DNA of 64,000 nt from an uncultured bacterium (GTDB lineage Bacteria; Vulcanimicrobiota; JAJTBE01; CAYNGH01), in the NCBI GenBank assembly GCA_964396845.1, contig CAYNGH010000002.1:17760-81759 (forward strand), read 5' to 3'. The position numbers were made by a program, and so were the translations under genes. Below the pieces are notes generated by a model that saw nothing but the letters and a program-made list of their open reading frames with translations, was not told the origin of the DNA and did no database searches. How positions within the stretch are numbered: the first letter of the stretch is position 1; each line of letters opens with the position of its first letter. Positions 2,113 to 27,900 of this stretch are shown here, piece by piece.

Positions 2113-2127
2113 TCACCAACTGCAGAA

Positions 2128-2559: not shown

Positions 2560-2560
2560 C

Positions 2561-2974: not shown

Positions 2975-3008
2975 TCTAATCCCTCCTAAGAATTTCCCAC
3001 AAACGCGG

Positions 3009-7312: not shown

Positions 7313-7750
7313 CTATTGAATTTTTCCCCGGAAGGTCTTTGATATGACCTTCTTTATCATCAAGGCAGCATCTATAGGCTTAAAGGGCTTCACGATAAAA
7401 TACTTGGCCCCGTTGACAATGGCTTCCTTGACCTTGTCCTGATAACCCAGGGAGCTTATCATGATGATTGTGGCATTGGGATCGATGGAAACAAGGTGTT
7501 TGACTGCTTCAACCCCGGTCATGTTGGGCATCACAATATCCAAAGTCACAATGTCGGGACGTGTTTTCTTATAAACCTCAATGGCCTGAAGGCCGTCTTC
7601 TGCTTCTCCCACCACCTCGCCCTTCATCAGTCGAACAACAATCTTCAGACTCCGCCGGATAAATTCAGAGTCATCCACAACCATGAATCGAAAAGGGGAG
7701 CCATCCTTCTTGAATATCTGCGCCTCGCTGTTAGAGGTATCAATAGTCAT
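7313..7750 (-). CDS. cheY: CheY-like single-domain response regulator
   Basis: 145 aa receiver domain (MVVDDSEFIRRSL..., DIVTLDIVMPNMTGVEAV..., conserved K in FIVKPF); last gene of the che operon. Confidence 0.8.
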   Translation of the reverse strand: MTIDTSNSEAQIFKKDGSPFRFMVVDDSEFIRRSLKIVVRLMKGEVVGEAEDGLQAIEVYKKTRPDIVTLDIVMPNMTGVEAVKHLVSIDPNATIIMISSLGYQDKVKEAIVNGAKYFIVKPFKPIDAALMIKKVISKTFRGKIQ

Positions 7751-7768: not shown

Positions 7769-8275
7769 TCAGTTTGCCTTTATTTTAAGAGCAATGTTCA
7801 CATTCAGATCCCCGTGGGGTGTGCTCAAGGGGATAATTATAGTATCAAGGGTCGAGTCGGTGGTCTGCATATCCTTACCGCATAAAAGCACCGGGGGAGT
7901 GATGTTGAACTTGCTTCCGCCGTCATTCAGGGTGGTTATGGCCTTGCCCACGATGATGTTGGCCAGTTCGTTGATGGTTGCCTTTGCAAGGCTGTTGAAG
8001 GAATCCAGCTCCTCATAATTCATGGCTCCGGCAATAGTCCTGGCAGATTCTTCGGACATATCCAGGATAAATCTCCCCTCAACCTCCCCGATAAGGCCGA
8101 TGATGACAGCCACTCCATTCATGGGAACCGGCGATTTCTTCATCACCGGCTTTCCCGGCGTTATAGGGCCTTCAAGCATCTCCTTGAGAACATCATAAGC
8201 GCCCTGGGCAAAGGGCTTGGCATATTTTTTTACCATTTGCATTCTCCCTTCATACAGTTTCCAGAATACCGGCAT
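7769..8275 (-). CDS. cheX: CheC/CheX-family chemotaxis phosphatase (CheX-like)
   Basis: 168 aa; has the CheC/CheX consensus E-x-x-N-I-x-x-G (INELANIIVGKA); size and single motif fit CheX. Alternative start at the second Met (8242) would reduce the overlap with the upstream gene. Confidence 0.65.
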   Translation of the reverse strand: MPVFWKLYEGRMQMVKKYAKPFAQGAYDVLKEMLEGPITPGKPVMKKSPVPMNGVAVIIGLIGEVEGRFILDMSEESARTIAGAMNYEELDSFNSLAKATINELANIIVGKAITTLNDGGSKFNITPPVLLCGKDMQTTDSTLDTIIIPLSTPHGDLNVNIALKIKAN

Positions 8276-10121
8276 TAGACTTGAAGAAGGACAGAGGATT
8301 GATCACCAGCACTACCCTGCCATCTCCCATAACTGTAGCGCCGATGACATAATCAGTGTCGAAGAAGAGATCGTCAAGCTTTTTTACCAGAACCTTGTCT
8401 TCTCCCAGAACGCCATCTACAAGGATTGCCGCGTACCTGTCACTGTCGGATATTATCACCGACATCCGTCCCGTTTCATCCCCATCAACGGGGTCAGATT
8501 CCATCATATCACCCTTCAGGCCCACCTCCATCAGAGTCACAACTCTGTCGGCATAACAGATCACTTTTTGTCTGTTCACAGTCTTGACCTGTCGGGATTT
8601 TAGTTTCAGAATCTTTTCGATGCAGGCCACCGGAACGGCAAATATGTTATCTCCCTTTTTAAAATAGATAACTTCAACCCTGGATGAATCGATGGGAACC
8701 TGAAAACTGCAGAGTCCCCGGTTTTGATTATTATGATACACATTCAGCCGGCCACTGATGGAATTGAGGATATTGTTCACATGATCTATTCCCTTGAAGC
8801 TGAATTTCTCATCATCGCATATTAGGGTAATTATAATATCAGAATCCCGGTATTGAGATAAAATCTTTATATTCAGCGATTCTTTTCCTGATGACAACCT
8901 CTGAATGATATCGGCGACAATATTATCCAGAACAATCTCAATGGCAACCGCCAGTTTTTTCCACATTTCAAGATCAATCTCAATGTCTGTTTCTTCTATA
9001 TTCAGTTTCACATCGGTATTGTGCTTCCGGGACAGGTCCCTGGCCAGCCTGTTGAAGCGGGCCAGTTCCTTGTTCAGTGACACCTTCCTTATGCTTATGA
9101 CTTTTTTTTCCAGCAAAAGGGTGAGTTTATCCATATTTCGAGAAAGCAGATTCAGTTTCTTTATAACAGGATGATATGGATTTGAACGGCTAATCTTGTC
9201 GATCAGGTTAATAAAATGAGATTTTCCCACAAACATTTCTTCAACCAGGCTCATCATCTCGTCAATATTGTGGATGGGAATCCTTACGAAGAAGTTTTCT
9301 TCTTCGCTTCTTTCTGGTTTCTCCGACATTGGTCTTTCTGTCGGGGCTTCATTGACATCAACGGCAGGCCCTATGGGTCTGTTTTCCTGTTTTCCTCGGC
9401 TTTCCTGAATGACAATGCCAATCTCTGTCATCATGGGAATTTCTGTAAGCTCCAGAACAGTATCAATATTTTCCCGTGGATCAAAAAGAATTAGGGTAAA
9501 GAAATCCACTTCCTCGATGGCAGGATCCTCTGGCGAGGGTTCAACCCAGGCCACATCACCAATCTCCTCAAGATTGGACACGACAAGAAATGCGCTGGAT
9601 GACTTCATCAGGCAATCAGAGTCAAAAGGCACCTTGATAACCAGAACGCTTCTGCCTTCTTCCATTCCTTTTCGTGCAGTTTCTTCAATATTGCGGGGCA
9701 TCGTCAGAGCTGTCGCTTCACAGCTTTGTCCTGTCTTTCCCGCCGGCGACTCTTTGAGGTTTTTCAGTAGTCCTGAATAATTTTTTGGCAATGGGCTGTT
9801 GGAAATTTCTGCGTGGGAGAGGGCTTTCAGGCAATCGGTAGCTTCAAAGAACAAATTGATTTGTTGAGAATCGCATTTTATTTTACCATTGCGTATCTGG
9901 TCAAGACGATCCTCCAGGGCATGGGCCAGCATATTGGTGGCATCCAGATTCATCATTCCCGCGGATCCCTTTAAGGTGTGCACCGGTCGAAATATTGAAT
10001 TTATTACCGCAGTGCTTGATGGATCTTTTTCAAGGATCAAGAGGTTGGAGTCGATGGCATCAAACAGCTCTTCGACCTCATCCTGGAAAGTCTGCATCAG
10101 CTCCATCATGTATGAGTCCAT
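8250..10121 (-). CDS. CheA-like protein with intact Hpt (P1) domain, dimerisation (P3)-like region, degenerate ATPase (P4)-like region and CheW-like P5
   Basis: P1 motif VHTLKGSAGMM with the phosphorylatable His. A P3-like segment (FVRIPIHNIDEMMSLVEEMFVGKSHF). Where N/G1/G2 boxes are expected the sequence reads IVLDNIVADII / ICDDEKFSF with no GxGxG. C-terminal CheW-like domain (IFAVPVACIEKI..., GDGRVVLVINP). Confidence 0.75.
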   Translation of the reverse strand: MDSYMMELMQTFQDEVEELFDAIDSNLLILEKDPSSTAVINSIFRPVHTLKGSAGMMNLDATNMLAHALEDRLDQIRNGKIKCDSQQINLFFEATDCLKALSHAEISNSPLPKNYSGLLKNLKESPAGKTGQSCEATALTMPRNIEETARKGMEEGRSVLVIKVPFDSDCLMKSSSAFLVVSNLEEIGDVAWVEPSPEDPAIEEVDFFTLILFDPRENIDTVLELTEIPMMTEIGIVIQESRGKQENRPIGPAVDVNEAPTERPMSEKPERSEEENFFVRIPIHNIDEMMSLVEEMFVGKSHFINLIDKISRSNPYHPVIKKLNLLSRNMDKLTLLLEKKVISIRKVSLNKELARFNRLARDLSRKHNTDVKLNIEETDIEIDLEMWKKLAVAIEIVLDNIVADIIQRLSSGKESLNIKILSQYRDSDIIITLICDDEKFSFKGIDHVNNILNSISGRLNVYHNNQNRGLCSFQVPIDSSRVEVIYFKKGDNIFAVPVACIEKILKLKSRQVKTVNRQKVICYADRVVTLMEVGLKGDMMESDPVDGDETGRMSVIISDSDRYAAILVDGVLGEDKVLVKKLDDLFFDTDYVIGATVMGDGRVVLVINPLSFFKSNAGILETV

Positions 10122-10231: not shown

Positions 10232-12187
10232 TCATGATCCTGCGGATTTTACCATGTCCTGAAGATTTATAACCAGAACTACGCTTCCGTCGCCCTGAAT
10301 ACAAGCACCGGCAATTTCTCTGATATTTCTCAAATAATTACCTATGGTCTTGATGGCAATCTTCTGTTTGCCAACAATTTCATCAAAACCCACCGCCATT
10401 TTTCTGTTGAACCCATTTACTACCGCCACAAGAAACGTGCCATCTTCATGGTTTTCCTGGGGACTGATTTCCATCACATCACAAAGCTGTCTGAAGGGGA
10501 TTATGCTTCCGTTGTATGTAATAACCCTCTTGTGGAGTATCGGTTTTAGCTGTTCCTTTCTGATTTTCATGATTCTTTGAATTCCGTCGGTGGGTATGGC
10601 AAACATCTCACTGCCGGCCCGGACAATCAATGTATCAACCATCGAAAGGGAAAGAGGAAGTCGAATGCTGAAGGTTGTGCCTCTTCCCTTTTCTGTGTTG
10701 ATTTTTATGGTTCCGCCATGTTTTTTAATGCTGGTGCGAACTACATCCATTCCAACACCCCTGCCGGAAATTTCCGTAACTCGTTCTGCAGTGCTGAAGC
10801 CGGGCATAAATATGTAGTCGAGGATTTCCTGTTTTGACATGAACTGAGCCTTCTCCATGGACACAAGCCCTTTTTCCACGGCCTTGTTCCGAATAACATT
10901 GTGATCAATACCCCTGCCATTGTCTTCAATCTCAATCACCACTGAGTTGACATCGTTAAATGCCTTGAGCCATACGCTTCCAGCGGGGTTCTTGCCCTTT
11001 CTTCTTCTTTCATCAGGATAATCGACTCCGTGATCCACGGCGTTTCTGATAAGATGAACCAGGGGATCCTTCAGGCTTTCAAGAACAACCCGGTCAATTT
11101 CTGTGCTTTCTCCGATGATCCTCACGTTTATCTGTTTATCCTGTTCTGATGCCAGAGTTTCGATAACTTTTCTAAACTGCCGGAACAGTGATCTTATGGG
11201 CATCATTCGTAATGATAACAGCTGGTTGTAAAACTGTTCCGTCAGCTTTTCAAAGAGTATTGCCAATCCGTTCATTTCCTTGCCATATGCCGTCAGCATG
11301 CGATCCTGGGTAATCTCCTGCTTCAAGTTCAATATCTTCATTTTAAGGGTAATCATTTCCCCGATGCTGTTCATCAAGCCATCAACTTTTTTTATGTTCA
11401 CCTTCATATTTGACTGAAGTGGAGAATCGCCGATTTTACCCCTGCCATTGTCATTGCGATATTTCTCGCCATTGGTGCTCTCCTGGGCGGAAGAATCATC
11501 CCACTGATTCACAAACTCCCTGATTTCCCAAATCAATGTTTTTATTTCCTCAATTATTGATGTTATACCATGTCCATTCTCTCCTGCAATGATATCCTCA
11601 AGGTTGTTTTCGATCTTCTCTGCAGTCAGATTCAGACGTTCATGTCCGATGAAAAGTGTAGCTCCCTTAATGCCTTTCATGGCGCGCAATATATTGGCAA
11701 CCACGATTATATCCGATGAAGGAGTGAACATGGGAAGATATTCTTGAACTGTTTTAATATGTTGTTCGGCAACTTCCTGAAACAACTCCATCTGGCTTTT
11801 CGACTCATCCCTGCCTGGAATTTTGGCACCTGCCAAGTTGTCCTCCGCCGATTCTCTGGAAAGATTGTCGATTTTCTGTTTCAAGACAGCAATTGACATG
11901 ATCAGCTTGTCATACAGGCTCAATCCCTTGTCCTGGGTAGATTTTTTCATTTCAAGAACCAGCTCTCTGACCTGATCAATCTCTGTCATCAAGCCATCCC
12001 GTCCCAACATGAAAGCACCTTCATAAATACTCCCTAAAACCATGGAAAGCTCTTCTAACAACTTCTTATCCGATGGATCCCGGTTGAGCATTTTAATTAA
12101 AACATTGATCTCATCAACATGCCCCATGGACTCGTCCATAAAATCCTTGAGTATTTCCAGTTGTAATTTTCTTTGAAATTTAATCAT
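10232..12187 (-). CDS. cheA: CheA histidine kinase with complete catalytic (P4) and CheW-like (P5) domains but two Hpt-like domains lacking the phospho-accepting His
   Basis: N box HLIRNAVDHG, G1 IEDNGRGID, G2 GRGVGMDVV and a CheW-like C-terminus are present. The Hpt-like segments read LGSIYEGAFMLG and RAMKGIKGATLFIG, aligning to AAHSIKGGAGTFG with His replaced by Gly and Lys. Confidence 0.85.
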   Translation of the reverse strand: MIKFQRKLQLEILKDFMDESMGHVDEINVLIKMLNRDPSDKKLLEELSMVLGSIYEGAFMLGRDGLMTEIDQVRELVLEMKKSTQDKGLSLYDKLIMSIAVLKQKIDNLSRESAEDNLAGAKIPGRDESKSQMELFQEVAEQHIKTVQEYLPMFTPSSDIIVVANILRAMKGIKGATLFIGHERLNLTAEKIENNLEDIIAGENGHGITSIIEEIKTLIWEIREFVNQWDDSSAQESTNGEKYRNDNGRGKIGDSPLQSNMKVNIKKVDGLMNSIGEMITLKMKILNLKQEITQDRMLTAYGKEMNGLAILFEKLTEQFYNQLLSLRMMPIRSLFRQFRKVIETLASEQDKQINVRIIGESTEIDRVVLESLKDPLVHLIRNAVDHGVDYPDERRRKGKNPAGSVWLKAFNDVNSVVIEIEDNGRGIDHNVIRNKAVEKGLVSMEKAQFMSKQEILDYIFMPGFSTAERVTEISGRGVGMDVVRTSIKKHGGTIKINTEKGRGTTFSIRLPLSLSMVDTLIVRAGSEMFAIPTDGIQRIMKIRKEQLKPILHKRVITYNGSIIPFRQLCDVMEISPQENHEDGTFLVAVVNGFNRKMAVGFDEIVGKQKIAIKTIGNYLRNIREIAGACIQGDGSVVLVINLQDMVKSAGS

Positions 12188-12582
12188 TATGAAGCCTTTC
12201 TACCTCTGCTACCAGAAATCAACATCTCAATATATGCAAGCAGAGAATCAGGATTTGGAGGTTTTACCAAGTAAAGATCCGCTCCAAGACGGATGCCTTT
12301 CCGTTGATCTTCTTCATTGGCCTCGGTTGTAAGTATAATGATTGGCAAATACTGATAGGCCTTCTCTTTCCTGATTGATTTTATCAGTCTGTAGCCGTCC
12401 ATTTTTGGCATATTTATATCAGTAATCACAAGATCATAATTACTGCTGTAGATTTTTTCAAGTGCCGACAACCCATCATTGGCAGTGTCAACCTCATAAT
12501 TATTCAGCTTCAGGATATATGCCAGGATATCCCTGATTGTCCTGGAGTCATCCACCACGAGAATTGTTGCCATCAAACACAC
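12187..12582 (-). CDS. cheY: CheY-like response regulator
   Basis: 131 aa receiver domain (ILVVDDSRTIRDIL, DLVITDINMPKMDGY, YLVKP); 1-nt overlap with the downstream cheA start. Confidence 0.8.
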   Translation of the reverse strand: MCLMATILVVDDSRTIRDILAYILKLNNYEVDTANDGLSALEKIYSSNYDLVITDINMPKMDGYRLIKSIRKEKAYQYLPIIILTTEANEEDQRKGIRLGADLYLVKPPNPDSLLAYIEMLISGSRGRKAS

Positions 12583-12611: not shown

Positions 12612-13439
12612 TTATTGTTTCTGATAAATAATTCCGTTGCTAAAACGGCAAATTTTGAATGCTGTGCTAATTCTGCTCATAGACTCGGAATGTCCCAGAA
12701 AAATATGACCCTCGCTTCTGAGGCTGTTGTAAAGATGCCCCACCACCTGTCTGCGGGCTTTCTGGTCAAAGTAAATCAGAACATTTCTGCAAAAGACAAT
12801 ATCAATATTTCTAATATTTGCAGCCTGCTGGCTATCCATCAGGTTCAGATAAAAGAAACGAACCAGCTTCTTCAATCTGGGATCAACCTCATATGTGCCA
12901 TTGTTTCCAATGAAATATTTGGAAAGATAGTAGCTGTGGACTTCCTTGAGAGCCCTGGCAGAATACTTGCCCTTCCTTGCAGTATCAAGGACCTGATGAT
13001 TGATGTCACTGGCCAGAACCTGAATGTTCCAACCATCGGTGTCCGGGAGGTTCTCCAGTATATTAATGGCTATGGAATAAGGTTCTTCTCCGGTGGAACA
13101 AGCTGCGCTCCATATTTTGAGGGTCTTGCTGTTCTGTTGCTTTTTTTCCAGAATCAGCCTCGGCAATAACTCTTCTCCCAATATCTTCATCTGTGCAATG
13201 TTTCGGAAGAAGTATGTTTCATTTGTTGTTATTATTTCAATAAGCCTGTTGACCTCATTTCCCCGCATGTCAAGACGGAGAAGGCGGTAATAATCCTTAA
13301 GGGTTTCACAGTTTAATTCTTCCATTCGACGGGCCAGTCGTCGGCCCAGCATATACTTCTTGCTGGGGGAGAAGAATATGCCGGTCTTGTCATAAATAAA
13401 ATCCCGAAACAATCTGAAGTCATCCGGATTGAGATTCAT
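12612..13439 (-). CDS. cheR: Chemotaxis protein methyltransferase CheR
   Basis: 275 aa; CheR N-terminal helical domain plus SAM-dependent MTase motifs (KIWSAACSTGEEPYSIAI, VLASDIN..., IVFCRNVLIYFD). Confidence 0.9.
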   Translation of the reverse strand: MNLNPDDFRLFRDFIYDKTGIFFSPSKKYMLGRRLARRMEELNCETLKDYYRLLRLDMRGNEVNRLIEIITTNETYFFRNIAQMKILGEELLPRLILEKKQQNSKTLKIWSAACSTGEEPYSIAINILENLPDTDGWNIQVLASDINHQVLDTARKGKYSARALKEVHSYYLSKYFIGNNGTYEVDPRLKKLVRFFYLNLMDSQQAANIRNIDIVFCRNVLIYFDQKARRQVVGHLYNSLRSEGHIFLGHSESMSRISTAFKICRFSNGIIYQKQ

Positions 13440-15376
13440 TCTGCATCACCATCCTCTCCCAGGACGCCAAGAATCATCCGGGCGGTGCTTTGAACCTCGT
13501 AATCCCTGGAATATAGCATTCTTCTGATGGCTTCCATACCCTGACTTCCACCGATTCTCTGGAGTCCTTCCAGGGCGGCCACCTGAACAATTGATGAAGA
13601 TTCAACATCAAGACACTGGTTGAGCACTTCGACACAACGGGGATCCTTCAAATTACCAATGCCCCGGACGGTTTCATATCTCACCCAGACATCATTATCA
13701 CCCAGCAATGGAACCAGGTAATCCAGTGCATCGGGAGGCGCCAGCCGACACAGAACATTAATCGCCTTCATCCTGACTTCGTTGTGTTCGTCATTCAAAA
13801 CAGGTATTAAATATTCCACAGGCAGGGGGCCCGGCATTCTTGAGAGAACTGCTATGGCATATTTTCGAACCTGCCAGTTGCTGTCATTTAATGCGATGAT
13901 GATGTCATCAAGATATTCCGCCGAAAGAAAAGCATGGGTCAATCCATAGGCTGCGGTGGATCGGACTTTTTCATCCAAATCATGAAGAAGCGACACAAGC
14001 TTCCGGTTCACGTGGCTTCCGCCAATTTTAGAGAGGGCTTCAGCAGCTTCAAATCTCACGTCTTCATACTCATCCCGCATTAATTCAAACAGATCCTCCA
14101 GGGCCTCACAAATTTTCATATCACCCATGGCCTTTGCCGATGCCCTTCGGACGTGCCCCAGAGAATCATGCAGTAGCGGAATAAGACGGCCTTTAATCGA
14201 CTCAGCACCGATTTCTGTCAGGGCATTCAATGCCTCCAGCCTGATATCGTCATCCTGGGAATCCAGAACAGACAGGAGAAAGGGGATTGGCAACTTTGAC
14301 GAGGATTGACCAAGAACCCTTATGAAATACCCGGGATTCTTGGTTTTACTAAAGTTGAACTGTTTTAAAATCGACCTGACACACTCTTCACCAGGCTTAT
14401 TAAAAATCTCCCGGATTATCCCAGGAAGCTCATCTCTGGACATGGCAAAACTGACCACGGGGTCAATCAGCTCATCTGGCCCCATCAATGACAGAATGTA
14501 TGCCGACATGCCACTGATGTCCCGATCCTTGCTTTCCAGGTTTGACAAGATGATTGAGATGTTGTTGTGCAGGTGATCCAGGCTGTCCCGGTCAAATTCT
14601 AACTGAAACCGGCGACATATATTTCCCACTGCAAAGATGATGTAGGAATCCACCAGGCCCTTTTCCTTGCCCAGCCTAACTATCAGCAGTTTTACAGTGT
14701 CCATGTTCCCTATTCGAGAAAGCTTTTTTAGCACAGCCAGGGACACTGCAGCACTTCCTTCATCAAGAACATCAAGTAGAACGGGAATAATGCCGGGATC
14801 ATCAATATTTGACAAAGCTTCGATTGCAAAAATTTTCACCCACGGGTCTTTTTCCTGTTGAATCTTCTTAATCACCGGCTGGACTTTCCGGGGATCATTT
14901 ATTTTACTCAGGCTTTCCAGAGCTGCTGTGCACACATTAATATCCCCATCTTTCAGAAGCGGAATCAAATGTTCAACACTGTTTCCACTGCCGATATCCC
15001 CGAGAATATTTATTGCAAACTTCCTGACATCACTGTCCCTGTCATAAATTAAAGGAGTAACCCCAGGCAGGGCAGATTCTCCAATCTGACCCAGGATTGC
15101 AATGGCATCGTTTCTCAACCTGACATCACTGTCACGAAGGTATTCCACAAGAAGAGCAATAACCTGAGGATCCTCTGTCGCCGACAATGTATCAATTAAT
15201 ACCTCCCGTGAGCCTCCCCGGACATGACGAAGTTGATCAACAAGTTTTGAATATTCTTCTTGTTTAGTTTCACCAACAGGCTTATTATCAAACACCTGTG
15301 AACTTTTCCGGTCATGATAGTCCGATTCCCGTATGACTTTTTCTGTTTTTGTACCTTTCAACCTCAACACTTCCAA
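13436..15376 (-). CDS. HEAT-repeat (PBS-lyase-type) protein embedded in the che operon
   Basis: 646 aa made almost entirely of ~30-aa repeats of the form D-x-D/N-x-x-VR-x-x-A-x-x-AL-x-x-IG; stop codon overlaps the cheR ATG (ATGA). Confidence 0.7.
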   Translation of the reverse strand: MEVLRLKGTKTEKVIRESDYHDRKSSQVFDNKPVGETKQEEYSKLVDQLRHVRGGSREVLIDTLSATEDPQVIALLVEYLRDSDVRLRNDAIAILGQIGESALPGVTPLIYDRDSDVRKFAINILGDIGSGNSVEHLIPLLKDGDINVCTAALESLSKINDPRKVQPVIKKIQQEKDPWVKIFAIEALSNIDDPGIIPVLLDVLDEGSAAVSLAVLKKLSRIGNMDTVKLLIVRLGKEKGLVDSYIIFAVGNICRRFQLEFDRDSLDHLHNNISIILSNLESKDRDISGMSAYILSLMGPDELIDPVVSFAMSRDELPGIIREIFNKPGEECVRSILKQFNFSKTKNPGYFIRVLGQSSSKLPIPFLLSVLDSQDDDIRLEALNALTEIGAESIKGRLIPLLHDSLGHVRRASAKAMGDMKICEALEDLFELMRDEYEDVRFEAAEALSKIGGSHVNRKLVSLLHDLDEKVRSTAAYGLTHAFLSAEYLDDIIIALNDSNWQVRKYAIAVLSRMPGPLPVEYLIPVLNDEHNEVRMKAINVLCRLAPPDALDYLVPLLGDNDVWVRYETVRGIGNLKDPRCVEVLNQCLDVESSSIVQVAALEGLQRIGGSQGMEAIRRMLYSRDYEVQSTARMILGVLGEDGDAE

Positions 15377-15393: not shown

Positions 15394-16458
15394 TTAAATT
15401 TTTAGCAATGACACAAGAATTTCTGTAACTTGACTGTCGGGAACAATTATGTCCGCAAGACCTGATTCAATAACAGACCTGGGCATTCCATAAACAGTGC
15501 ATGTGCTGGAATCCTCAGCTATGGTAAGACCTCCTGATTTGCGGATTTCCCGCATACCCCGGGTGCCGTCACTGCCCATTCCAGTCATTATGATTCCCAC
15601 TGTATCGCTTCCATACACCTTTGCCACCGATTCCATCATGATGTCCACCGAAGGCCGATAAATCACATCTTCAGGAAATCGACTCAGGCGGATCACCACT
15701 CCCTTGGAAAGTGATGTGGTAACTGCTGTCAGATGTTGATCCCCCGGGGCAATATAACACACGGAACGTCTGACTCTCTCGCCATTTCTGGCTTCCTTCA
15801 CATTTATCCCACAGATGCTGTCAAGCCTGTTGGCCAGGGAGCTGGTGAACCCCGCAGGCATATGCTGGGTCAAAAATATCGGCGCTGGAAAATCAGCAGG
15901 AATCATCGGAAGAATCTCAAGAAGCTTTCTGGGCCCTCCGGTAGATATGCCAAGAGCAATGGCAGGGTTGATAAAATGCCTTTTGAATGCATTCATGTTC
16001 CCAGTTTCGGCAACAGGCTCTCTATAAATCGTTACACTCCCTGATTTCAAAGGCTTCTTCCTTCTTCTCAAGGCAGCAGAACGAATCTTGATAATCAGAT
16101 CCCTTCGAAAATTATCAACATCCTGTCGATTCGACATAAAAGGCTTGGTGATAAAATCAGAATGCTCATCAAGTGATGTCTTCAAGTCAAGCTCTGCTTC
16201 CTGCCTTGACATTGAACCGATGAAAATCACCGGAATCCTTAACACCTGCCGAAGCTGTTCGATAATACTCCTTCCGTTGTTCCTGAAAAGCTCCATATCC
16301 AAAGTCATCACATCAGGATTGAGGGACGCAGCCTTTTCAAGAGCCTCATCGCCGTCCCCTGCAAGACCTGCAACAACAATCCGGCGATCGCTTTCCAGAA
16401 GCCTCTTGATCCGTTTGCGAATCATTTTGGATTCATCAACAACAACAACAGATATCAT
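15394..16458 (-). CDS. cheB: Chemotaxis response regulator protein-glutamate methylesterase CheB
   Basis: 354 aa; N-terminal receiver, C-terminal methylesterase with ALGISTGGP, TGMGSDG and AEDSSTCTVYGMP motifs. Confidence 0.9.
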   Translation of the reverse strand: MISVVVVDESKMIRKRIKRLLESDRRIVVAGLAGDGDEALEKAASLNPDVMTLDMELFRNNGRSIIEQLRQVLRIPVIFIGSMSRQEAELDLKTSLDEHSDFITKPFMSNRQDVDNFRRDLIIKIRSAALRRRKKPLKSGSVTIYREPVAETGNMNAFKRHFINPAIALGISTGGPRKLLEILPMIPADFPAPIFLTQHMPAGFTSSLANRLDSICGINVKEARNGERVRRSVCYIAPGDQHLTAVTTSLSKGVVIRLSRFPEDVIYRPSVDIMMESVAKVYGSDTVGIIMTGMGSDGTRGMREIRKSGGLTIAEDSSTCTVYGMPRSVIESGLADIIVPDSQVTEILVSLLKI

Positions 16459-16507: not shown

Positions 16508-18460
16508 TCAACTGGCCTTCCCTTCATCGGCACTGTCTGGCTCCAGACATGTCAGCTCATCATCCAGACAGGAAACACCGCCGAGATTTGTTCCACTCAA
16601 GTCTTCAACAGTATTCAAATCCTCCGGGGACTGTTGGATATTATCCCCTCCCGAAGAATCATCAATCTCACCAATCTTATCAATCTCATCAATCTCATCA
16701 TCGTCATCAGAACCCATTTGAGCCAGCAACTGCTCCTGCAATGCTCTCAACTGCTCCTCCTCAGACAGCTCGATAGTGGAAAAATCTGTCTTCCCTTCAT
16801 CTGATCCAGATAAAGAATCATCACGGGAATCTGAATCCACCACAGGCAATAAATCATCAGCAACCTTCTCTTCCAAGCCGACTTCCCATAAATCATCCTC
16901 GGCACCAGGGGCATCGGAATTCTTATGGACAACATCAATTGCTGAATCATCATCAATAACATCCTGGGGCGATTCCTGTTGCAGGTTTAATATGCCGGCC
17001 ACATTTAAAATTATAACAAACCGCTGACCGCCATTCATTTTTCCAATTCCTTCGATAAACGAAGCATCGATTTCTGAGATTATCTCCGGGGCAGATTCAA
17101 TGCTGTCGGCGGTCAACTGAATCACTTCAGAAACCGAGTCAACTATCAAGCCGGAAACCCGGTTCTGACAGGTCACCACAACAATGCGATCGGAACCGCT
17201 GGGTTCTTTCCAATCAAGCCCGAATCTGCTGCGAAGATCAATCACCGGCAGAACATCTCCCCGCAGGTTGACCACACCCCGGACATAATCTGGTGAGCCT
17301 GGCACTGCAGTTATATCAGTCAGGCGGATTATTTCCCGGACATTTCTGATATCAACACCAAATTCTTCATTGCCAAGCCTTAAGCTGACCATCTGCCTGA
17401 TTTCCAATGAACCTCTCTCCTTTGCCGGATGCCGGTTGGCCCCGACTGCATCCGCTGATTTTTCATCAATCCCGGAAATATCCGAACTGCAGGTGATACT
17501 ATCTGAATCAAGAATCAAAACAAGCCGGTTTCCGCCCTCAAGCTTTCCTATTCCCTGAAGCCTGCCATCCAGGGCAACAGTTTCCGGCGGATCCTCAATC
17601 CGATCCCTGGGAATACTGACCACCTCATTGACCATATCCACCAGAACCCCCGACAGAACTCTTTCGCCATTCACATCCCGGCGAAGGATGAGAATCCGGG
17701 ATCGCTTGTCTATGGGCGACTCTGTCATGCAAAAATAACTGCAAAGATTAATAACAGGCATCACCTTTCCCCGGATGCTTATGATACCGGAGATAAATCC
17801 CGGAGCCTCAGGAACTCTGGTAATCCGGGGAATCTTGATAATCTCCTCCACCTTGTTGATATCAACGGCATACTCCTCGGCCCCCAGCTGAAAACTGACC
17901 ATCTGAACATCATGATTCAATCCTGCCGACTCCGAATCGTCAACGCCGTCAATCCCTGCCGGATAATCAAAAGAAGAATCCATATCATCGGAAACATCAT
18001 CTATTCTGGTTATTGTATCGAGATTTAATATGGAAATTAATCGCTGGCCGGATTTGTGTTTGCAAATCCCCTTCAGACTGCCGGAGCCTGACTGGTATAG
18101 TGACGGGGGAGGCAGTTCGACTTCCCCGGAATTAATCCTGAGGACTTCGGAAACCGAATCCACAACCAGGCCCACTGGGGTATCGTCATAACTTGTCACC
18201 ACAACCCGGTTGGAAGGCCCATGGTGAATCTCCTCCATGTTCAGGCGTTTCCTGGTGTCAATGATTGGCAGGATCTGTCCCCGGAGATTGACAACCCCCT
18301 CCAGATAATGAGGAGCCCTGGGCACCATAGTTATGCCCGGCAACTTGATAATCTCCTGAACATTTCCAATCTCAATGCCGTATTCTTCTCCACCAAGACG
18401 AAATGTTACAAGCTGTTCAATGTTTCTATTTTCTGACAGAGCCGGGGACATATGAACCAT
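16508..18460 (-). CDS. Triple CheW-domain coupling protein with acidic C-terminal tail
   Basis: 650 aa; three successive CheW-like domains (each containing LRG-x-xxPVIDLR-like and GxxVDxVxEV motifs) followed by a D/E-rich tail (DDDDEIDEIDKIGEIDD...). Confidence 0.8.
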   Translation of the reverse strand: MVHMSPALSENRNIEQLVTFRLGGEEYGIEIGNVQEIIKLPGITMVPRAPHYLEGVVNLRGQILPIIDTRKRLNMEEIHHGPSNRVVVTSYDDTPVGLVVDSVSEVLRINSGEVELPPPSLYQSGSGSLKGICKHKSGQRLISILNLDTITRIDDVSDDMDSSFDYPAGIDGVDDSESAGLNHDVQMVSFQLGAEEYAVDINKVEEIIKIPRITRVPEAPGFISGIISIRGKVMPVINLCSYFCMTESPIDKRSRILILRRDVNGERVLSGVLVDMVNEVVSIPRDRIEDPPETVALDGRLQGIGKLEGGNRLVLILDSDSITCSSDISGIDEKSADAVGANRHPAKERGSLEIRQMVSLRLGNEEFGVDIRNVREIIRLTDITAVPGSPDYVRGVVNLRGDVLPVIDLRSRFGLDWKEPSGSDRIVVVTCQNRVSGLIVDSVSEVIQLTADSIESAPEIISEIDASFIEGIGKMNGGQRFVIILNVAGILNLQQESPQDVIDDDSAIDVVHKNSDAPGAEDDLWEVGLEEKVADDLLPVVDSDSRDDSLSGSDEGKTDFSTIELSEEEQLRALQEQLLAQMGSDDDDEIDEIDKIGEIDDSSGGDNIQQSPEDLNTVEDLSGTNLGGVSCLDDELTCLEPDSADEGKAS

Positions 18461-18479: not shown

Positions 18480-20429
18480 TCAGATGGCCTGAAGCTCTTC
18501 TGCCATAAAAGAAATCTCCTCGGCTGCCCTGGCCAGCTCTTCGATTCCCAGGGCCTGTTCCTCCGAGGCCAGAGCCACTTTTGAACCGGCAGCCGATGCC
18601 TGCTCTGACTCGGACTTTACTTCCCTGGCTGCTTCCACTCCCTGGCTGGTGTCTTCCAGCTGGTCATCAAAAAGCATTATAAGCTTGTCAACTATCTCTA
18701 TGGCCTCACTGGCAGCGTTTAGTATATTTTCCGCTTCACTGTGAATCTCATCACCCCGGCGGGCTTCCACCTCCGCCTGATTTCCCGCCTTTTCCACATC
18801 ATCTCCCACCACGGCAATCTGATCCCGGATATTTCTCACCAGATCCTTGATTTTCTCTGCAGAATGGGAAGATTCATTGGCCAGGTTCTTTACATCAGCT
18901 GCCACCACGGAAAAGCCCTTGCCATATTCACCGGCCCGGGCTGCCTCAATGGCACCGTTGAGGGCCAGAAGGTTGGTCTGAATGGCAATGTTGACAATGG
19001 CATCAACAATCTTGCTGATTTTCTTGGCCTTGTTTCCAAGGGCCACCAGTTCCTTGGCAGAACTCATGTTGGAAGCTGCAGCCTCGTTGATACCTTCCAC
19101 CACAACAGCAATGCGACTCCTGGCTTCAGAATATTCCTCCACCAGCTCATCAAAGCCGTTTCGAATCCCCTGGGATACATCTTTGACCATCTCAGTGCTC
19201 ACCTGGGCTTCCAGGGCTGCCTGTCGCAAATTTTCTGCCCCTTCGGCAGCCTGACCGGTGCCATGGGCAATTTCGCTTATGGCGTTCTTAATCTCCTGGG
19301 CAGCGCTGTTGGATTCCTGAATAGTGGCGGATATTTCCTCCGCGGCGGCTCCCACCTCGTTAGCTGTTTCCAGGGTAGATTCATTCTCATGAAGCTCATC
19401 GGCAATAGCTGAAAGCTCGCTGGTGGCAATCTTGATTTCCTCCAGGGCACGGCTCTGCTCCTTGATGGAATTCACCGACTGATTGGTGGCCGCGGCGGTC
19501 TGTTCTGAGGCTGCTGCAATCTGCTCTGCGCTGTTCAAAAAGTTTTCCAGAGTCACCAACTGTTCCGTTGCCAGTCTTCCCACCTGTTGGGCCTGATCCA
19601 CAATATCCCTGGCAATCTGACCGCAACGTTCCATGGTTTCCCCCACCTCCCGGGCCCTGACAACAACCCCGGAGGCAGAATTCCCGGCGCCTTCTATTTT
19701 TTCTGATACAATCCGTATATCTTCCTGCACTGACCGGGCAACCTGGCTGATCTCCCTGGCAGCGTTTTCGGCATTTTCCGCCAGGTTTCGAACCTCGTCA
19801 GCCACCACCGCAAAACCACGGCCATGCTCCCCGGCCCGGGCAGCCTCGATGGCAGCATTCAAGGCTAAAAGGTTGGTCTGATCTGCAATTTCCACCACCG
19901 ACTGGACTATACTGCCTATCTCATCTCCCTGGAGAATCAGGTCCGCAGCGCTTCTCACCGCTTCAACATTCACCTCGGCAAAGGAATTGATCCCCTCGAT
20001 GGCAGTGTTGATCTTGTCCAGGGAGTTCCGCAAAAGAGATGCCAGGCTGTCAACATTTCGCACTACATTCTCCGAATCTCTGGATGCCTGTTTGGACCTG
20101 CCGTCGGCCTTCTGAGCGATTTTCTTTGCCTTTTCCGCAGTGGCACTGGCAACCTCAACATTGTGGGCCAGCTTCTCTCCCGAGGCAATTATCTCATTGG
20201 ATGACGCGGCAACCCTCTCCACTCCCGATGCAAGCTGTGATGTGGCATCGGCAAGCTGCTGGGCTACCTGCTGGCGCATTTGTGCTTCTTTTTGTTTCTT
20301 CATGGCCAGCTTTCGAAGGGTATCCTTTCGATCAACCTTGTCAATAAACGACATTCTCGGCACCGATGCAACCGATGCAACACCCCTGGAACCGCCATTC
20401 CCTTCTCTTTTACCCAGTACACGAGCCAT
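18480..20429 (-). CDS. Soluble methyl-accepting chemotaxis protein with two tandem signalling (MA) domains
   Basis: 649 aa with no obvious TM segment. The highly conserved MCP tip motif appears twice ([35 protein letters not shown] and [36 protein letters not shown]), each flanked by heptad-rich coiled coil. Confidence 0.85.
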
Positions 20430-20697
20430 AAGGTTACCTCCATCATGTTTCTATAAGGTAAATCGGCCTGAATGGACAATCTGTTTAGAATAATAATCAA
20501 AAATCAGACTAAAGTATTATGACATAATCGGTATTATTTAGTCATAGAGGGCACATGCTCAACAAAAAGAAATATCCCCTGATAAACAGGAGAATCAAAA
20601 CATACCAGTGCTGGATCAGTCAGGATATTACTGCGGTTGCCCTTCCGGGACAGGGTTTTTCATGCCTCCGGAAACACTGCCATCCACAGGGCCTGGT

Positions 20698-21996
20698 TCA
20701 GTTTTTCCCAGAAAGAAAGATATCCTCAAAACCCGAGATCGCTTCCAACTCATCGGGGGAGGCTTTCTTTCTGAACAGGTTCAGATCATTCCTGAAGCTC
20801 AGAGGATCCCCAAGATAATAATGAACCAGTCCCCTGGTGGCCAACAGCAGATGATTATCGGGAGTTTTTTTGATGGCGGTATTTATCAGGTTCAGAGCTT
20901 TTTCTCTGTTATTCAGCAGGGAGTACATGACTGCGTAATCTGCCATCTGCTCTGATGTTTCAGGGGGTTTTGGGTTAGCCTCCTGCCAGATTAGAGCCTC
21001 GGCCCGGGCCTGTTCTTCCCTGCCTATTTCTGCCAGAAAGCTGACATGACTCAGGATGAACCCGGTGTTTTCCGGGTTGCATTCACGGGCAGTCCGATAA
21101 TATTTATCTGCGACATCAAATTCTCTTCTGTCCCGGTGGATGGCTCCCAGGATGTTATTCAGGTTTCCCCTCATTTCTGGGCCGATGTCGTCAACCTGTT
21201 TCAACTGAGGATCAATTTTCAGGTAATTCTTATATTCACGCCAGGCCTTTTCTGTCTGGTCGGTGTCCATGTATATTTCCATCAGCCTCAGGTAGCCATG
21301 GGGCTTGAAAAAACCCTGCTCAACCACCATCTTTGCAGTTTTTTCCGCCATGGGGGGGTTTGTGTGGAACAAGCTGTAAGTGCTCACCAGCAGAATTTTT
21401 GATTTCTCTTCTGGTGTAGGATTCAGGGCCTCAGCTCGTCGGAGCGTTTCCAGGGACTGGTCATATTTTCCCACTTCAGAAAAAGCCCTGGCCAGCTCAA
21501 CGGTGGTGTGAACGCTCAGGGGATCCGCCCGGTTTGCCTTGATCCTGTCGGAAAGACATGCCTCCAGATCCCCGGTGGCCCGGTAAGCGCTGGCCCGGTA
21601 AAGCAATCCGTTGACATTATCCGGCTGAACCTCAAGGAGTTCATTGGAGTGTTTAAAAACCTGCTCCCACTCCTCATGGATAGCAAAAACCCTGATTATA
21701 CCTTCCCTGGCTTCGATGTTTTCCGGGTCAATTCTTAAAACCTGCCGGTAAAAATCCATGGCTTCGTCAGGCTTTCTGTCCTGAGCAAGACATTGTTCTG
21801 CTTCATGAAGCAGACGATTCACCTGGGCTCTTGCTTCATCAGATAACTGGGTGTCAGATGACAATGAATGACTGCCGAGAGTACCAGACCTGTCACATGC
21901 AGGCAATATCATCAATAAAAGACACAGGAAAACAAAAGATGCGATTAAACTTTTTTTATTGTCAGACCCTCGAAGGGATCCCCCACAAACTGGCAT
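20698..21996 (-). CDS. TPR-repeat lipoprotein
   Basis: 432 aa; signal peptide with lipobox (LLMILPAC), multiple TPR-like repeats. Confidence 0.7.
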   Translation of the reverse strand: MPVCGGSLRGSDNKKSLIASFVFLCLLLMILPACDRSGTLGSHSLSSDTQLSDEARAQVNRLLHEAEQCLAQDRKPDEAMDFYRQVLRIDPENIEAREGIIRVFAIHEEWEQVFKHSNELLEVQPDNVNGLLYRASAYRATGDLEACLSDRIKANRADPLSVHTTVELARAFSEVGKYDQSLETLRRAEALNPTPEEKSKILLVSTYSLFHTNPPMAEKTAKMVVEQGFFKPHGYLRLMEIYMDTDQTEKAWREYKNYLKIDPQLKQVDDIGPEMRGNLNNILGAIHRDRREFDVADKYYRTARECNPENTGFILSHVSFLAEIGREEQARAEALIWQEANPKPPETSEQMADYAVMYSLLNNREKALNLINTAIKKTPDNHLLLATRGLVHYYLGDPLSFRNDLNLFRKKASPDELEAISGFEDIFLSGKN

Positions 21997-22002
21997 ATCA
22001 CC

Positions 22003-23307
22003 CTACTGCTGAGGTTCCTTGACCCTGGATTTGAGCATCGGCAAGATTTTTTCAGTATATTTCTTTTCCTCATTGGACGCCATGACCATGAATCTTTGAA
22101 AATCCCTATCATAGGCTTGTTTGTCACCCATGTAATAATATATCAGGGCCCGGTTTCCATAATTGGCAGCCTCATCAGGCTCCCGGTTTATTGCAGTATT
22201 CATGAGCTGGATGGCTTTCTGATCCTGCCCCAGCATCATATAAATAATCGCCTGGTTGCCAAAATCATCTGTATCCATCGGCGGATTCGGGTTCATATCC
22301 AGCCAGGTCTGGGCATATTTCTTCGCTTCGTCAGGGTAGCCCATTGATGCCAGAAGCCCTATATAGTTGACCAGGGCCACCTGGTTGTCGGGAAATATTT
22401 TAAGAGATTTTTCATAATACTCTTTTGCGGTGTCCAGCTCCATCCTGATCCGATGGATTGTCCCGAGTTTGTCATATATCTTTGCCCGGAGCTTTTCTCC
22501 CAGGAAATCGATCAATTTTTCATCCGGGTCAGATTCCTTGTACTTTTCATACATCTCCATGGCTTTTTCAATGAGTTCTTCATTGTCTTCGCTTTCTTCG
22601 CCCAGGTCCGTGTAAATATCCATCAGGAGAATATATGCATGGGTTGGACTCTCATCATATTCCAGGGACTGTTTGGCATACTTTTCCGCCTCCCTGAGAT
22701 CCCCCTTGTTGATTGATGCCATGGTAAGCTGAACATAGACAGAATATTTCTGTTCAAAGGTTTCCGCCAAATCCATAGTCTTATTGAGGAGATGAATACC
22801 CTCATCATATTTTTGAGCTTCAATCAGAGAAATAGCCATGTCAAAATTTGTGCGGAATGTGAAGGGAGAATTCTTTGTGGCCCGGCGGGTGTCGGCAAGG
22901 GCCATGTCTGCATTGCCCATCATCAGATGAACCCTGGATCTGACCAGAAGACCGTTCACATGATCCGGATCCACCGTCAGGAGTCTATTCAACACCACCA
23001 GAGCCTCTTCCCATTTTTTCAGGCTCACCAGGCATTCTGCCTTGCCGTTGAGAGCTGAAATATTGGTGTCATCAATCTCCAGTACTTCGTCATACATTTT
23101 TATGGCCTCTTCAAACCTTCCATCCTCATAGAGCCTTTCCCCCTCGGCGATGAGCCTGTCGCTTCTCACCCGCATCGATTCGGAAATGGTTTCAGCAGGA
23201 CTGGGACTCTCGGTGGGAGTCACCTCCGGTTTCGGCGTGCACCCCATCAGAACCGTCAATATATATACTAATATGACCGCTGGTAAAACATAAAAAAACT
23301 TTTTCAT
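22003..23307 (-). CDS. TPR-repeat lipoprotein (paralog of the downstream gene)
   Basis: ORF to 23337; preferred start MKKFFYVLPAVILVYILTVLMGC (lipobox). Repeat architecture and several blocks (DPDHVNGLL..., LGTIHRIRMELDTAKEYYEKS...) parallel the 20698..21996 protein. Confidence 0.7.
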   Translation of the reverse strand: MKKFFYVLPAVILVYILTVLMGCTPKPEVTPTESPSPAETISESMRVRSDRLIAEGERLYEDGRFEEAIKMYDEVLEIDDTNISALNGKAECLVSLKKWEEALVVLNRLLTVDPDHVNGLLVRSRVHLMMGNADMALADTRRATKNSPFTFRTNFDMAISLIEAQKYDEGIHLLNKTMDLAETFEQKYSVYVQLTMASINKGDLREAEKYAKQSLEYDESPTHAYILLMDIYTDLGEESEDNEELIEKAMEMYEKYKESDPDEKLIDFLGEKLRAKIYDKLGTIHRIRMELDTAKEYYEKSLKIFPDNQVALVNYIGLLASMGYPDEAKKYAQTWLDMNPNPPMDTDDFGNQAIIYMMLGQDQKAIQLMNTAINREPDEAANYGNRALIYYYMGDKQAYDRDFQRFMVMASNEEKKYTEKILPMLKSRVKEPQQ

Positions 23308-23530
23308 CCCCACTCCTCCATAAGGCAATAATTTCACAGCACCTCTGATTATAACAAAAAATCCACAGAATGGGAAGGTTTTTCTGAATCAATGCATCAA
23401 GACACCATGAAAGCAGAGAAAGACGGTCTAAAATGAAAATGCCTCTTCTTGCAGGGATAATTGTTTATAAAATTAATAATAATCATATAATTAATCAGGA
23501 TTGCGATTTTAACTGAGAAGGCGGTATATT

Positions 23531-25156
23531 ATGCTGGGTAAACAGGGTCGGGGAAAACCCAGAAAGCTGGACACTCCATCAGATTTTATGGCTTTTGGTG
23601 ATCTGGAGGGGCTTACCCGTCTTCTGGAAAAAAATCCCTCCCTGCTCAACGAAAAAGATGGTAAAAAGAGAAACCTCCTGGCCCAGTCTGTTGCTCACGG
23701 CAACAGGGAATTTACCGACTATTTTATCTCCCGGGGACTTGACATAAACCAACCGGATTTTCAGGGGATGACTCCCATCATGCTGGCGGCCAGAGATGGC
23801 AACGAGAGCATGGTCTATCACCTGGCGGAAAAAAACGCAGACCTGAACCACCGCAACCTGGCAGGAGAAACCCTGTTACACATGTTCACCCCTGCCAGTC
23901 GGGAAAATATAATGGAAACTCTCCTGAGTCGGGGAGCAAATCCCAACCTGGGAAATATCCGGGGGCTGACTCCCCTTCATGTGGCGGCAAAAAAAGGCAG
24001 AACTGATATCTGCAAACTCTTGCTGGATCGAAAAGCGGATATCAACGCCCAGACTGATGCAGGGATTACTCCCCTGATGATTGCCATCTCCGCCGGGCAG
24101 GATCAGGTGGCAAAACTCCTTCTGGAGCGGGGAGCCAGAGTGGATCAGAAAGACATCGCCGGGCGAACGGCACTCCACGGAGCGGCAATCAGAAACAACA
24201 GCGAGATAGCCTGGGCCTTGATAGAAAAAGGAGTAGCTGTTGACTCCCAGGATCAGGACGGGTTCACTCCTTTGCACCTGGCAGCCCGTAACGGCGCAGT
24301 GGAATCGATCAACCTGCTTCTGGACAAGAAAGCAAATCCCGACACTAAATCCGAGTTTGGCGATACTCCCCTGCACCTGGCCACCTTTAACGGTCATGAA
24401 GAAGCATCCAATGCCCTGATGGAACGGGGTGCCCGACATGACATACAGAACGAAGCTGGAATAACCCCCGCAGAAGGGGGAAAGCTCCACCAGGAGAAAA
24501 TGGAGAAACGGCGGGAGTTATCAAGGGAAAGGGTTTCTGCCCGGGATGCCCGGCTGGAAGCTGAACGGAAGGCCAGGGAAGAAGAGCAGAAAACCAAAGA
24601 AGAAGCACGCCGGCAGAAGGAAGAAGAAGAGAAGGCACAGCTGGCACGGCTGGCGGCGGAAAAATTGCGTCAGCAGGAACTGCGGGAAGAAGCAGAACGC
24701 CGGGCAAAGCTCCAGAAACAAAAAGGGCCGGAACCGCCAGACACCATGTCAACTCCCCCGGTATTGCCCAAGTCCACCCATACCATGGATGATTTTCTCG
24801 ATGAGATAAACATCAGAAAATTACGGAAAATCTTGGAAGAAAGCCCCGGACTTGTATTTGAATGCAACGAGAATAAATCCACCCTGCTCCACTTTGAAGC
24901 CATGGAAGGCAATCTTCAGCGGGCTTCATTATTGCTGGCCAAGGGTTCTCCCGTGGAACCTGTTGACAAAGCCCGGTGGACTCCTCTTCATTATGCCTGT
25001 TATTACGGACGCTTTGAAGTTGCAGTTCTTCTGGTAACCAAAGGGGCTGATGTGAATAGTGTCACCGGCTCCAACAACACTCCCCTGTCCCTGGCAAAGC
25101 GTCAAAACAATCAGGAACTGGTTCGTTTCCTGATTCAGAAGGGTGCAGTGGATTGA
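23531..25156 (+). CDS. Ankyrin-repeat protein with central charged coiled-coil insert
   Basis: 541 aa; ~9 N-terminal and ~3 C-terminal ankyrin repeats (G-TPLH-A, -GH-x-x-x-LL-x-GA-) separated by a ~90-aa K/E/R-rich segment (EERKAREEEQKTKEEARRQKEEEEKAQ...). Confidence 0.75.
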   Translation: MLGKQGRGKPRKLDTPSDFMAFGDLEGLTRLLEKNPSLLNEKDGKKRNLLAQSVAHGNREFTDYFISRGLDINQPDFQGMTPIMLAARDGNESMVYHLAEKNADLNHRNLAGETLLHMFTPASRENIMETLLSRGANPNLGNIRGLTPLHVAAKKGRTDICKLLLDRKADINAQTDAGITPLMIAISAGQDQVAKLLLERGARVDQKDIAGRTALHGAAIRNNSEIAWALIEKGVAVDSQDQDGFTPLHLAARNGAVESINLLLDKKANPDTKSEFGDTPLHLATFNGHEEASNALMERGARHDIQNEAGITPAEGGKLHQEKMEKRRELSRERVSARDARLEAERKAREEEQKTKEEARRQKEEEEKAQLARLAAEKLRQQELREEAERRAKLQKQKGPEPPDTMSTPPVLPKSTHTMDDFLDEINIRKLRKILEESPGLVFECNENKSTLLHFEAMEGNLQRASLLLAKGSPVEPVDKARWTPLHYACYYGRFEVAVLLVTKGADVNSVTGSNNTPLSLAKRQNNQELVRFLIQKGAVD

Positions 25157-27839: not shown

Positions 27840-27900
27840 AACAAGGACCCCGGCCCCGTAAGGTCACCCTATGCAGGGCCGGTCTGTCAAGTTGTTCGAA

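Follow-up and report, generated by a model that had tools for sequence, protein, structure and literature searches.

Receptor gene and its two signalling modules

The window analysed here is the whole 64-kb stretch of DNA (64,000 nucleotides) from an uncultured Vulcanimicrobiota-like bacterium. Its minus strand carries a chemosensory gene cluster in the order dosM, cheW3, cheB, HEAT, cheR, cheY, cheA, cheA', cheX and receiver. The first gene encodes a chemoreceptor of the DosM type, with two signalling modules of the methyl-accepting chemotaxis protein (MCP) kind in a single chain. The receptor gene and its parts are the following.

18480..20429, minus strand: dosM-type receptor gene, one uninterrupted open reading frame (ORF) of 649 amino acids (aa); soluble, with two MCP signalling modules
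20349..20429, minus strand: Gly-rich disordered N-terminal tail, residues 1-27 (predicted local distance difference test score, pLDDT, below 50 for residues 1-28 in the AlphaFold2 (AF2) model)
19386..20270, minus strand: hairpin module 1, residues 54-348 (profile repeat; superposition on Tm1143; phmmer match to 2ch7, 278 versus 278 residues)
18486..19370, minus strand: hairpin module 2, residues 354-648 (hhalign to module 1; phmmer matches to Tm1143, Tsr and Tm14)
19779..19889, minus strand: tip 1, residues 181-217, kinase/CheW-docking U-turn (nearly all columns invariant in 31 members)
18879..18989, minus strand: tip 2, residues 481-517 (conserved, consistently unlike tip 1)
19374..19385, minus strand: central joint N-E-S-T, residues 349-352 (exact midpoint of the tips; sole non-helical stretch within the AF2 rod)
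19488..19517, minus strand: candidate methylation site, residues 305-314 (matches [ASTG]2-x2-[EQ]2-x2-[ASTG]2; column conserved in 24 of 31 members)
19302..19352, minus strand: candidate methylation sites, residues 360-376 (consensus at column 360 in 11 and at column 367 in 26 of 31 members)

A preliminary description of this DNA had reported the MCP tip motif twice in one polypeptide, and both of the tips it quoted are present. They begin at residues 186 and 486, a spacing of exactly 300 in place of the roughly 280 residues first given. The Pfam scan that it proposed gave MCPsignal twice along the chain (E = 5e-61; 205.9 bits, the cut-off being 34.6), and this was the sole Pfam family matched in the 649-aa protein. 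Comparison of the two halves by BLASTP confirmed that they are homologous (31% identity, E = 1e-32). As the highest 19-residue Kyte-Doolittle mean is only 1.3, the receptor has no transmembrane (TM) segment, in line with the earlier reading. Hydropathy, Pfam and an AF2 helix covering residues 28-648 thus describe a soluble protein with neither TM segment nor sensor domain, and Pfam, the profile repeat and structural superposition agree on two MCP signalling domains in one polypeptide, both being features expected of the DosM receptor of F9 systems. The N-terminal 100 residues or so had also been set apart as a region with no obvious sensor. They do lack a sensor domain, but they are not a separate region: only about 27 N-terminal residues are disordered, and those from about residue 46 onward form the conserved, indel-free outer arm of hairpin 1.

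The receptor has over 100 full-length homologues, spread over many phyla; they are about 647 aa long (635-693 aa), with 81-100% query coverage. The two closest share 49% and 45% identity, the second being from a metagenome-assembled genome (MAG) of Vulcanimicrobiota. A family alignment was built from 31 of the homologues and divided into halves for profile-profile comparison with hhalign. Residues 54-348 aligned with residues 354-648 over 295 columns with zero gaps, at an offset of exactly 300 (E = 3.4e-63). Because this family alignment is gapless, the 21 gaps of the pairwise BLAST alignment between the halves were taken as a coiled-coil artefact and that alignment was rejected.

The AF2 model, computed from the same 31-homologue alignment, has a mean pLDDT of 87.7 and consists of helix at residues 28-348 and 353-648, with one break at 349-352. 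In a Foldseek search the model aligned with Tm1143 chain B over 301 columns (root-mean-square deviation, rmsd, 4.8 A), with a HAMP-Tsr fusion over 300 columns (rmsd 6.2 A) and with an E. coli tip fragment over 99 columns (rmsd 0.9 A). By DSSP the helix continues without a break through both tips, and the model might therefore have been one giant hairpin; this idea was dropped because the fold search superimposes whole hairpins, tips included, on solved MCPs.

Among solved structures, Tm1143, of the 44H class, is the best sequence match for each module. Tm1143 (2CH7) and Tm14 (3G67) are canonical antiparallel hairpins of the same length as each module, and the tip of Tm1143 has a near-identical counterpart in tip 1. 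They carry one hairpin per chain, whereas the window receptor carries two in tandem, connected by a four-residue joint with a one-residue register shift. The heptad counting suggested in the preliminary description gave 22 heptads (154 residues) for the stretch between tip 2 and the C-terminal end, and this distance is 153-158 residues in all homologues with a motif-matching tip 2. By length and similarity, then, with an outer arm of about 22 heptads in each module and Tm1143 as best match, the receptor falls in class 44H, although its inner arms are about one heptad shorter (a repeat of 300 versus 308 residues).

Regularities of the DosM-type family

Indels in the 31-member alignment are confined to the N-terminal tail region, and from about residue 46 onward the 31 sequences have none. 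The tips lie exactly 300 residues apart in every aligned homologue whose two tips matched the search motif, and the same spacing is found at the loci of Acidobacteriota, Clostridia, Desulfonatronum, Microvirga and Azospirillum. In the Sphaerotilus and Azospirillum receptors there is no indel at residues 36-558, which spans both tips; small ones occur in the outer arm of module 2.

The fixed spacing has a geometric consequence. As 3.5 does not divide evenly into 300, the stripe that faces the core turns by one residue at the module junction, and the family-averaged hydrophobic 3.5-residue phase is about 0.27 throughout module 1 and about 1.27 throughout module 2. With such a register jump no seamless helix can run through the junction, so that a joint is needed where AF2 breaks the helix. 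The whole DosM-type family must therefore have a central joint imposed by its spacing.

The two tips also differ from each other in a fixed manner. Throughout the 31 members tip 1 and tip 2 are distinguished by A192/G492, E212/D512 and D183/I483, and in most of them also by L187/M487 and L190/V490; the receptors of Azospirillum and Sphaerotilus have this signature as well. Several of these positions correspond to what we take to be Tsr residues of the CheW/P5-binding surface. The fixed spacing, the register jump at the midpoint and the tip asymmetry are not mentioned in the DosM/F9 literature cited here, and we consider them modest new observations.

The F9 gene cluster

Two signature architectures characterize the F9 class, MCPsignal-MCPsignal (DosM) and CheW-CheW-CheW (CheW3) (PMC9321776; PMC7534058). 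Its gene order is M-W-B-.-R-Y-A and its receptor class 44H (Mo et al., PMC9321776). Full F9 clusters occur sporadically, in 64 of 2781 species, and 98% of DosM homologues lack a sensor domain (PMC9321776). The genes that accompany dosM in the window, apart from the two cheA genes described below, are the following.

16508..18460, minus strand: cheW3, 650 aa, three CheW domains and a 151-aa acidic tail (Pfam CheW x3, E = 2.3e-107; three domains with a local hidden Markov model, HMM)
15394..16458, minus strand: cheB, receiver and methylesterase (Pfam)
13436..15376, minus strand: HEAT-repeat protein, 646 aa, the "." gene of the F9 order (Pfam HEAT_2, E = 2.2e-72)
12612..13439, minus strand: cheR (Pfam CheR, CheR_N)
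12187..12582, minus strand: cheY, single receiver (Pfam Response_reg, E = 3.6e-31)
7769..8275, minus strand: cheX, CheY-P phosphatase family (Pfam CheX, CheC)
7313..7750, minus strand: second single-domain response regulator (Pfam Response_reg)

The order M-W-B-.-R-Y-A is reproduced in the window and agrees with tables S1 and S6 of PMC9321776. The triple-CheW gene expected beside an F9 receptor starts 19 nucleotides (nt) downstream of dosM. It lies directly 3' of the receptor gene in all eight complete homologous loci examined, which were drawn from Vulcanimicrobiota, Desulfobacterota, Acidobacteriota, Clostridia and Proteobacteria, and in the annotated loci of Sphaerotilus and Azospirillum a CheW gene of matching length occupies the same place. 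The Sphaerotilus locus, on a plasmid, reads MCP-CheW-CheB-HEAT-CheR-RR-CheA-hyp-RR-MCP (RR, response regulator), as published for V. cholerae, and its receptor shares 36% identity with the window receptor over 605 residues. The cluster order, the adjacent triple CheW and the full-length homologues across phyla bear out the DosM-like identity first proposed for the receptor. For CheA, CheB and CheR the F9 assignment is a provisional one, drawn from architecture and synteny only. Among the listed matches to generic tip peptides in a genome-collection scan, the double-domain relatives standing among ordinary MCPs were four loci (L003-L006), with no Vibrio DosM.

The V. cholerae system is the closest described comparison in architecture. 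There VC1403 is DosM, listed as 44H, and VC1402 is the triple CheW; DosM is essential for the cytoplasmic array and is reported to form an extended rod whose two ends each carry a signalling domain (review PMC7534058). In both organisms two MCP domains stand in one soluble sensorless chain of a 44H-like class, next to a triple-CheW gene, in the order DosM-W3-B-.-R-Y-A. The window differs in its uncultured Vulcanimicrobiota-like host, in having about 36% identity to proteobacterial DosM-type proteins, in a CheA without the acceptor His that is followed by a kinase-dead CheA' (as predicted below), CheX and an extra receiver, in a HEAT protein of about 646 aa versus about 210 aa, and in having no second MCP in the cluster; a family HMM scan for a second MCP gene found none in the window.

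Some variation was noted in two of the accompanying proteins. The C-terminal tail of CheW3 (16508-16960, 151 aa) contains 32% Asp+Glu and 5% Lys+Arg and looks low-complexity and disordered; the length of the tail after the third CheW domain differs among CheW3 homologues. The HEAT protein lies between cheB and cheR in four other loci (L002, L086, L087 and L088) and after cheR in a fifth (L084). The protein in this slot has 609-639 aa in the two closest relatives, the 609-aa one (locus L001) being without a Pfam family on record, and about 210-270 aa in Desulfonatronum, Sphaerotilus, Azospirillum and L084. No description of what the HEAT protein does in F9 systems seems to have been published.

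A split CheA pair

The catalytic and phospho-acceptor parts of the kinase appear to be divided between two consecutive genes.

10232..12187, minus strand: cheA, 651 aa, intact P3-P4-P5 (E = 2e-86 to T. maritima CheA; N, G1, F and G2 boxes present)
8250..10121, minus strand: cheA', 623 aa, P1 (His48)-P2-P3-truncated P4-P5 (Pfam Hpt, P2 and CheW; no HATPase_c)

The motif H-[ST]-x-K-G was sought in the 651-aa CheA and is absent. Its acceptor position is K170 (MKGIKGAT) and the Hpt match is sub-threshold (E = 0.0026). As even a Pfam scan with relaxed thresholds showed no Hpt over residues 1-120, only a single degenerate Hpt-like segment is claimed. The acceptor position is Lys in this protein, Gln in the CheA of a Vulcanimicrobiota MAG (L001) and Lys in that of L086. 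Within the Hpt-like segment of these three catalytic CheAs two His are conserved (residues about 144 and 182 here), the first in QH(I/V). The second lies 11 residues past the lost acceptor position, in FIGHE, FINHI and FIGHD; it could be an alternative phospho-acceptor, which is a caveat to reading the kinase as split.

CheA' has the complementary composition. Its canonical P1 keeps His48, in FRPVHTLKGSAGM. In alignment with the CheA of E. coli and T. maritima, some 53 residues spanning the G1, F and G2 boxes are missing from its P4, and the N box is degenerate. CheA' is predicted to be a kinase-dead phospho-acceptor, whose His48 would be trans-phosphorylated by the 651-aa CheA, possibly within a P3 heterodimer. 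In a collection of 5.8 billion proteins the CheA' family comprises nine clusters, none of which has HATPase_c; past these nine the E-value weakens from 1e-128 to 1e-50 and the matches are ordinary CheAs. The cheA-cheA'-cheX-RR layout recurs at L086, a 62% relative, and a cheA'-cheX-RR triad stands alone at L085. The F9 CheAs of Desulfonatronum, Acidobacteriota, Microvirga, Sphaerotilus and Azospirillum keep both the His motif and the kinase boxes. As these other F9 CheAs are unsplit, the division of the kinase is a derived feature of this lineage.

The sole described parallel is the CheA4/CheA3 pair of Rhodobacter (Cereibacter) sphaeroides, and a 2023 survey called functional partitioning of CheA unique and restricted to Rhodobacteraceae (PMC10782961). 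There, too, the kinase is divided between co-encoded CheA paralogues of a cytoplasmic array system; CheA4 is P3-P4-P5, and CheA3 has P1 with its His, a degenerate kinase and P5 (PMC10782961; PMC6829392). The 651-aa CheA corresponds to the catalytic partner, P3-P4-P5 without a phosphorylatable P1 (with the caveat of the conserved His at +11), and CheA' to the acceptor partner, with a P1 His, a dead kinase domain and P5. In contrast to the window, Rhodobacter has neither double-tipped receptor nor triple CheW. The window's catalytic CheA keeps His-less Hpt-like sequence, its acceptor partner is compact (623 aa), and the phosphatase presumably comes from a separate CheX, whereas in Rhodobacter it comes from CheA3 itself. 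Orthology with the Rhodobacteraceae proteins was not found for CheA': no named Rhodobacter CheA3 is among its best 120 homologues. Judged from sequence, the pair resembles CheA3/CheA4 in its predicted working and is not a member of that family. A family of nine clusters with ordinary CheAs as nearest relatives points to an independent origin of CheA', and the split appears to have arisen independently of Rhodobacter CheA3/CheA4.

Proposed role of the receptor and alternative explanations

The receptor is very probably a member of the DosM family and the structural receptor of an F9-class chemosensory system. As such it is ordinary, and adds to a known family a member from an uncultured Vulcanimicrobiota-like bacterium. 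By analogy with cryo-tomography of V. cholerae and the reviews based on it, it would dimerise into a long four-helix rod with a kinase-control tip at each end. Each tip would join trimers of receptor dimers and dock CheW-like domains, namely the three of CheW3 and the P5 of both CheA proteins. With a docking tip at each end, one molecule would link two parallel baseplates into a membrane-free cytoplasmic sandwich array, and the invariant 300-residue tip spacing may act as the ruler of plate separation. Since a DosM-type receptor has no sensor, stimulus input is expected from other soluble receptors sharing the array (none of them encoded in the window), and perhaps also through the receptor's methylation state, set by the CheR and CheB of the operon. 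Output would run from CheA to His48 of CheA' in trans, and from there to CheY, the second receiver and CheB, with CheX removing phosphate.

Several points weigh against this proposal. The likeness to the type protein VC1403 was drawn from its description, and the sequence comparison was made with Sphaerotilus and Azospirillum proxies of the same architecture and gene order. An extended rod is preferred to a folded-back arrangement of the two hairpins by analogy with the published cryo-tomography. The predicted tip-to-tip distance of about 44 nm (about 300 helical residues at roughly 0.148 nm) exceeds the about 35 nm between F9 baseplates in V. cholerae (PMC3964821). If what is seen as the plate is the CheW ring, lying a few nanometres above each tip, the expectation drops to about 39-40 nm, which closes the gap only partly. 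The conserved methylation-type motifs suggest that the receptor may exceed a passive scaffold, and a partner receptor is absent from the window by the family HMM.

One alternative carries some weight, though we incline against it: that the protein is an active receptor regulated by methylation and not mainly a passive strut, with CheR and CheB modifying sites near the centre of the rod and the central joint passing or gating signals between the baseplates. It is compatible with the scaffold role and would add to it. The candidate motifs at 305, 360 and 367 all lie close to the rod centre and are present in 24, 11 and 26 of the 31 homologues, the operon has a dedicated cheR and cheB, and no other receptor gene exists in the window. 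However, a motif match does not demonstrate modification, and this motif consists of residue types common in such Ala/Glu/Ser-rich helices; partner receptors may be the targets of CheR and CheB instead, and the receptor has no input domain.

It is quite unlikely that the chain folds back on itself as a single-chain pseudo-dimer, with a U-turn at 349-352 packing hairpin 2 against hairpin 1. The monomer would then look like a normal receptor dimer, about 22 nm in length, whose unlike tips stand side by side at the same end, and two layers would overlap at their far ends, as those of Tar cytoplasmic fragments do. Such fragments, about 20 nm long, give a layer spacing of 31 nm (PMC3964821); with 22-nm units and an overlap of about 9 nm, the two layers would be spaced at about 35 nm, near the V. 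cholerae value (PMC3964821). The only helix break of the AF2 model falls at the exact midpoint, where the one-residue register jump excludes a seamless helix, the far ends of neighbouring helices in an MCP dimer are probably near enough for a four-residue linker, and consistent tip differences would suit an obligate asymmetric pair. Yet cryo-tomography with flexible fitting in V. cholerae reports an extended DosM rod across both baseplates (PMC7534058), folding back leaves unexplained both the constant pairing with a triple CheW and the dependence of the array on DosM, and no analysis made here directly favours it. The large rmsd values of the full-length MCP matches in the fold search do not distinguish an extended chain from a folded-back one and were given no weight.

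The idea that the gene is an artefact or a remnant (two MCP genes fused by frameshift or misassembly, or a decaying duplicate), of which the preliminary description had named the frameshifted remnant and the single-domain hit as outcomes that would speak against its reading, has practically no standing, for both domains score, the frame is continuous, the module spacing is identical in distant phyla, both tips are strongly conserved, and a frameshifted fusion of two genes is ruled out by the homologues, of which over 100 are full-length and equally long (635-693 aa).

Beyond the DosM-type rod itself, a more elaborate arrangement can be imagined, an asymmetric sandwich array built around an obligate two-protein kinase that is independent of Rhodobacter CheA3/CheA4. 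Its two unlike tips would sort the five CheW-like domains (three of CheW3, the P5 of CheA and the P5 of CheA'), the catalytic and acceptor partners would be held in fixed geometry, as P3 heterodimers or on opposite plates, and the coupling of both faces would fall to the fixed 300-residue rod and to the central joint and methylation-type sites within it. Taken as a joint claim, this is unlikely.

The receptor is a distant addition, from an uncultured phylum, to a family of poorly understood function. It yields three testable structural rules for DosM-type proteins (300-residue spacing, a forced midpoint joint and conserved tip differences). These rules are relevant to how the distance between the plates of a cytoplasmic array is set, and to whether the two faces of such an array are alike. 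A more useful lead than the receptor is the split CheA pair, the part most worth following up. The partitioned CheA of Rhodobacteraceae likewise serves a cytoplasmic array (PMC10782961), and a second, apparently independent split kinase among cytoplasmic-array genes would suggest an adaptation to this type of array and not an accident of one lineage.

Upstream region and genomic neighbourhood

The region directly upstream of dosM contains the following features, of which the promoter-like sites and the hairpin come from a consensus scan only.

20430..20697, minus strand: non-coding gap of 268 nt between a TPR gene and dosM
20437-20441, minus strand: GGAGG in the gap 5' of dosM, 7 nt before the receptor ATG
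20562-20516, minus strand: promoter-like sites
20593-20575, minus strand: terminator-like hairpin, 3' of the preceding TPR gene

This arrangement suggests, from sequence signals, that dosM heads its own transcription unit. Two TPR proteins are encoded directly upstream of it (20698-23337, minus strand) and are parted from it by the terminator-like hairpin; the nearer one has a lipoprotein-like signal (...LLMILPACDRSG). Beyond them lies a divergent gene for a 541-aa ankyrin-repeat protein (23531-25156, plus strand). A large TPR protein is also found near the Azospirillum F9 cluster (L088).

Flagellar basal-body genes (FliF in the window, FliE to FliP in relatives) lie on the other side of the F9 cluster (508-7289), together with the gene of a large GAF-PAS histidine kinase. 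This motility setting is common to all four related genomes (including L001, L083 and L086), which suggests a motility neighbourhood conserved in the lineage.

The 64-kb window is otherwise ordinary chromosome, with FliF, the GAF-PAS histidine kinase, MutS, MutL, BamB and YchF. MutS (45373-47973) has 61-68% identity to proteins of Eremiobacterota/Vulcanimicrobiota MAGs. Identical public proteins (100%) were found for a MutS fragment (P0133), in a JGI metagenome, and for CheA' (P0241), on an NCBI contig. Six ORFs of 333-533 aa are without a Pfam match (E <= 1e-5), in 26838-30630, 41969-44355 and 61567-62661; the 26838-30630 interval has three of them in a row, all on the minus strand.

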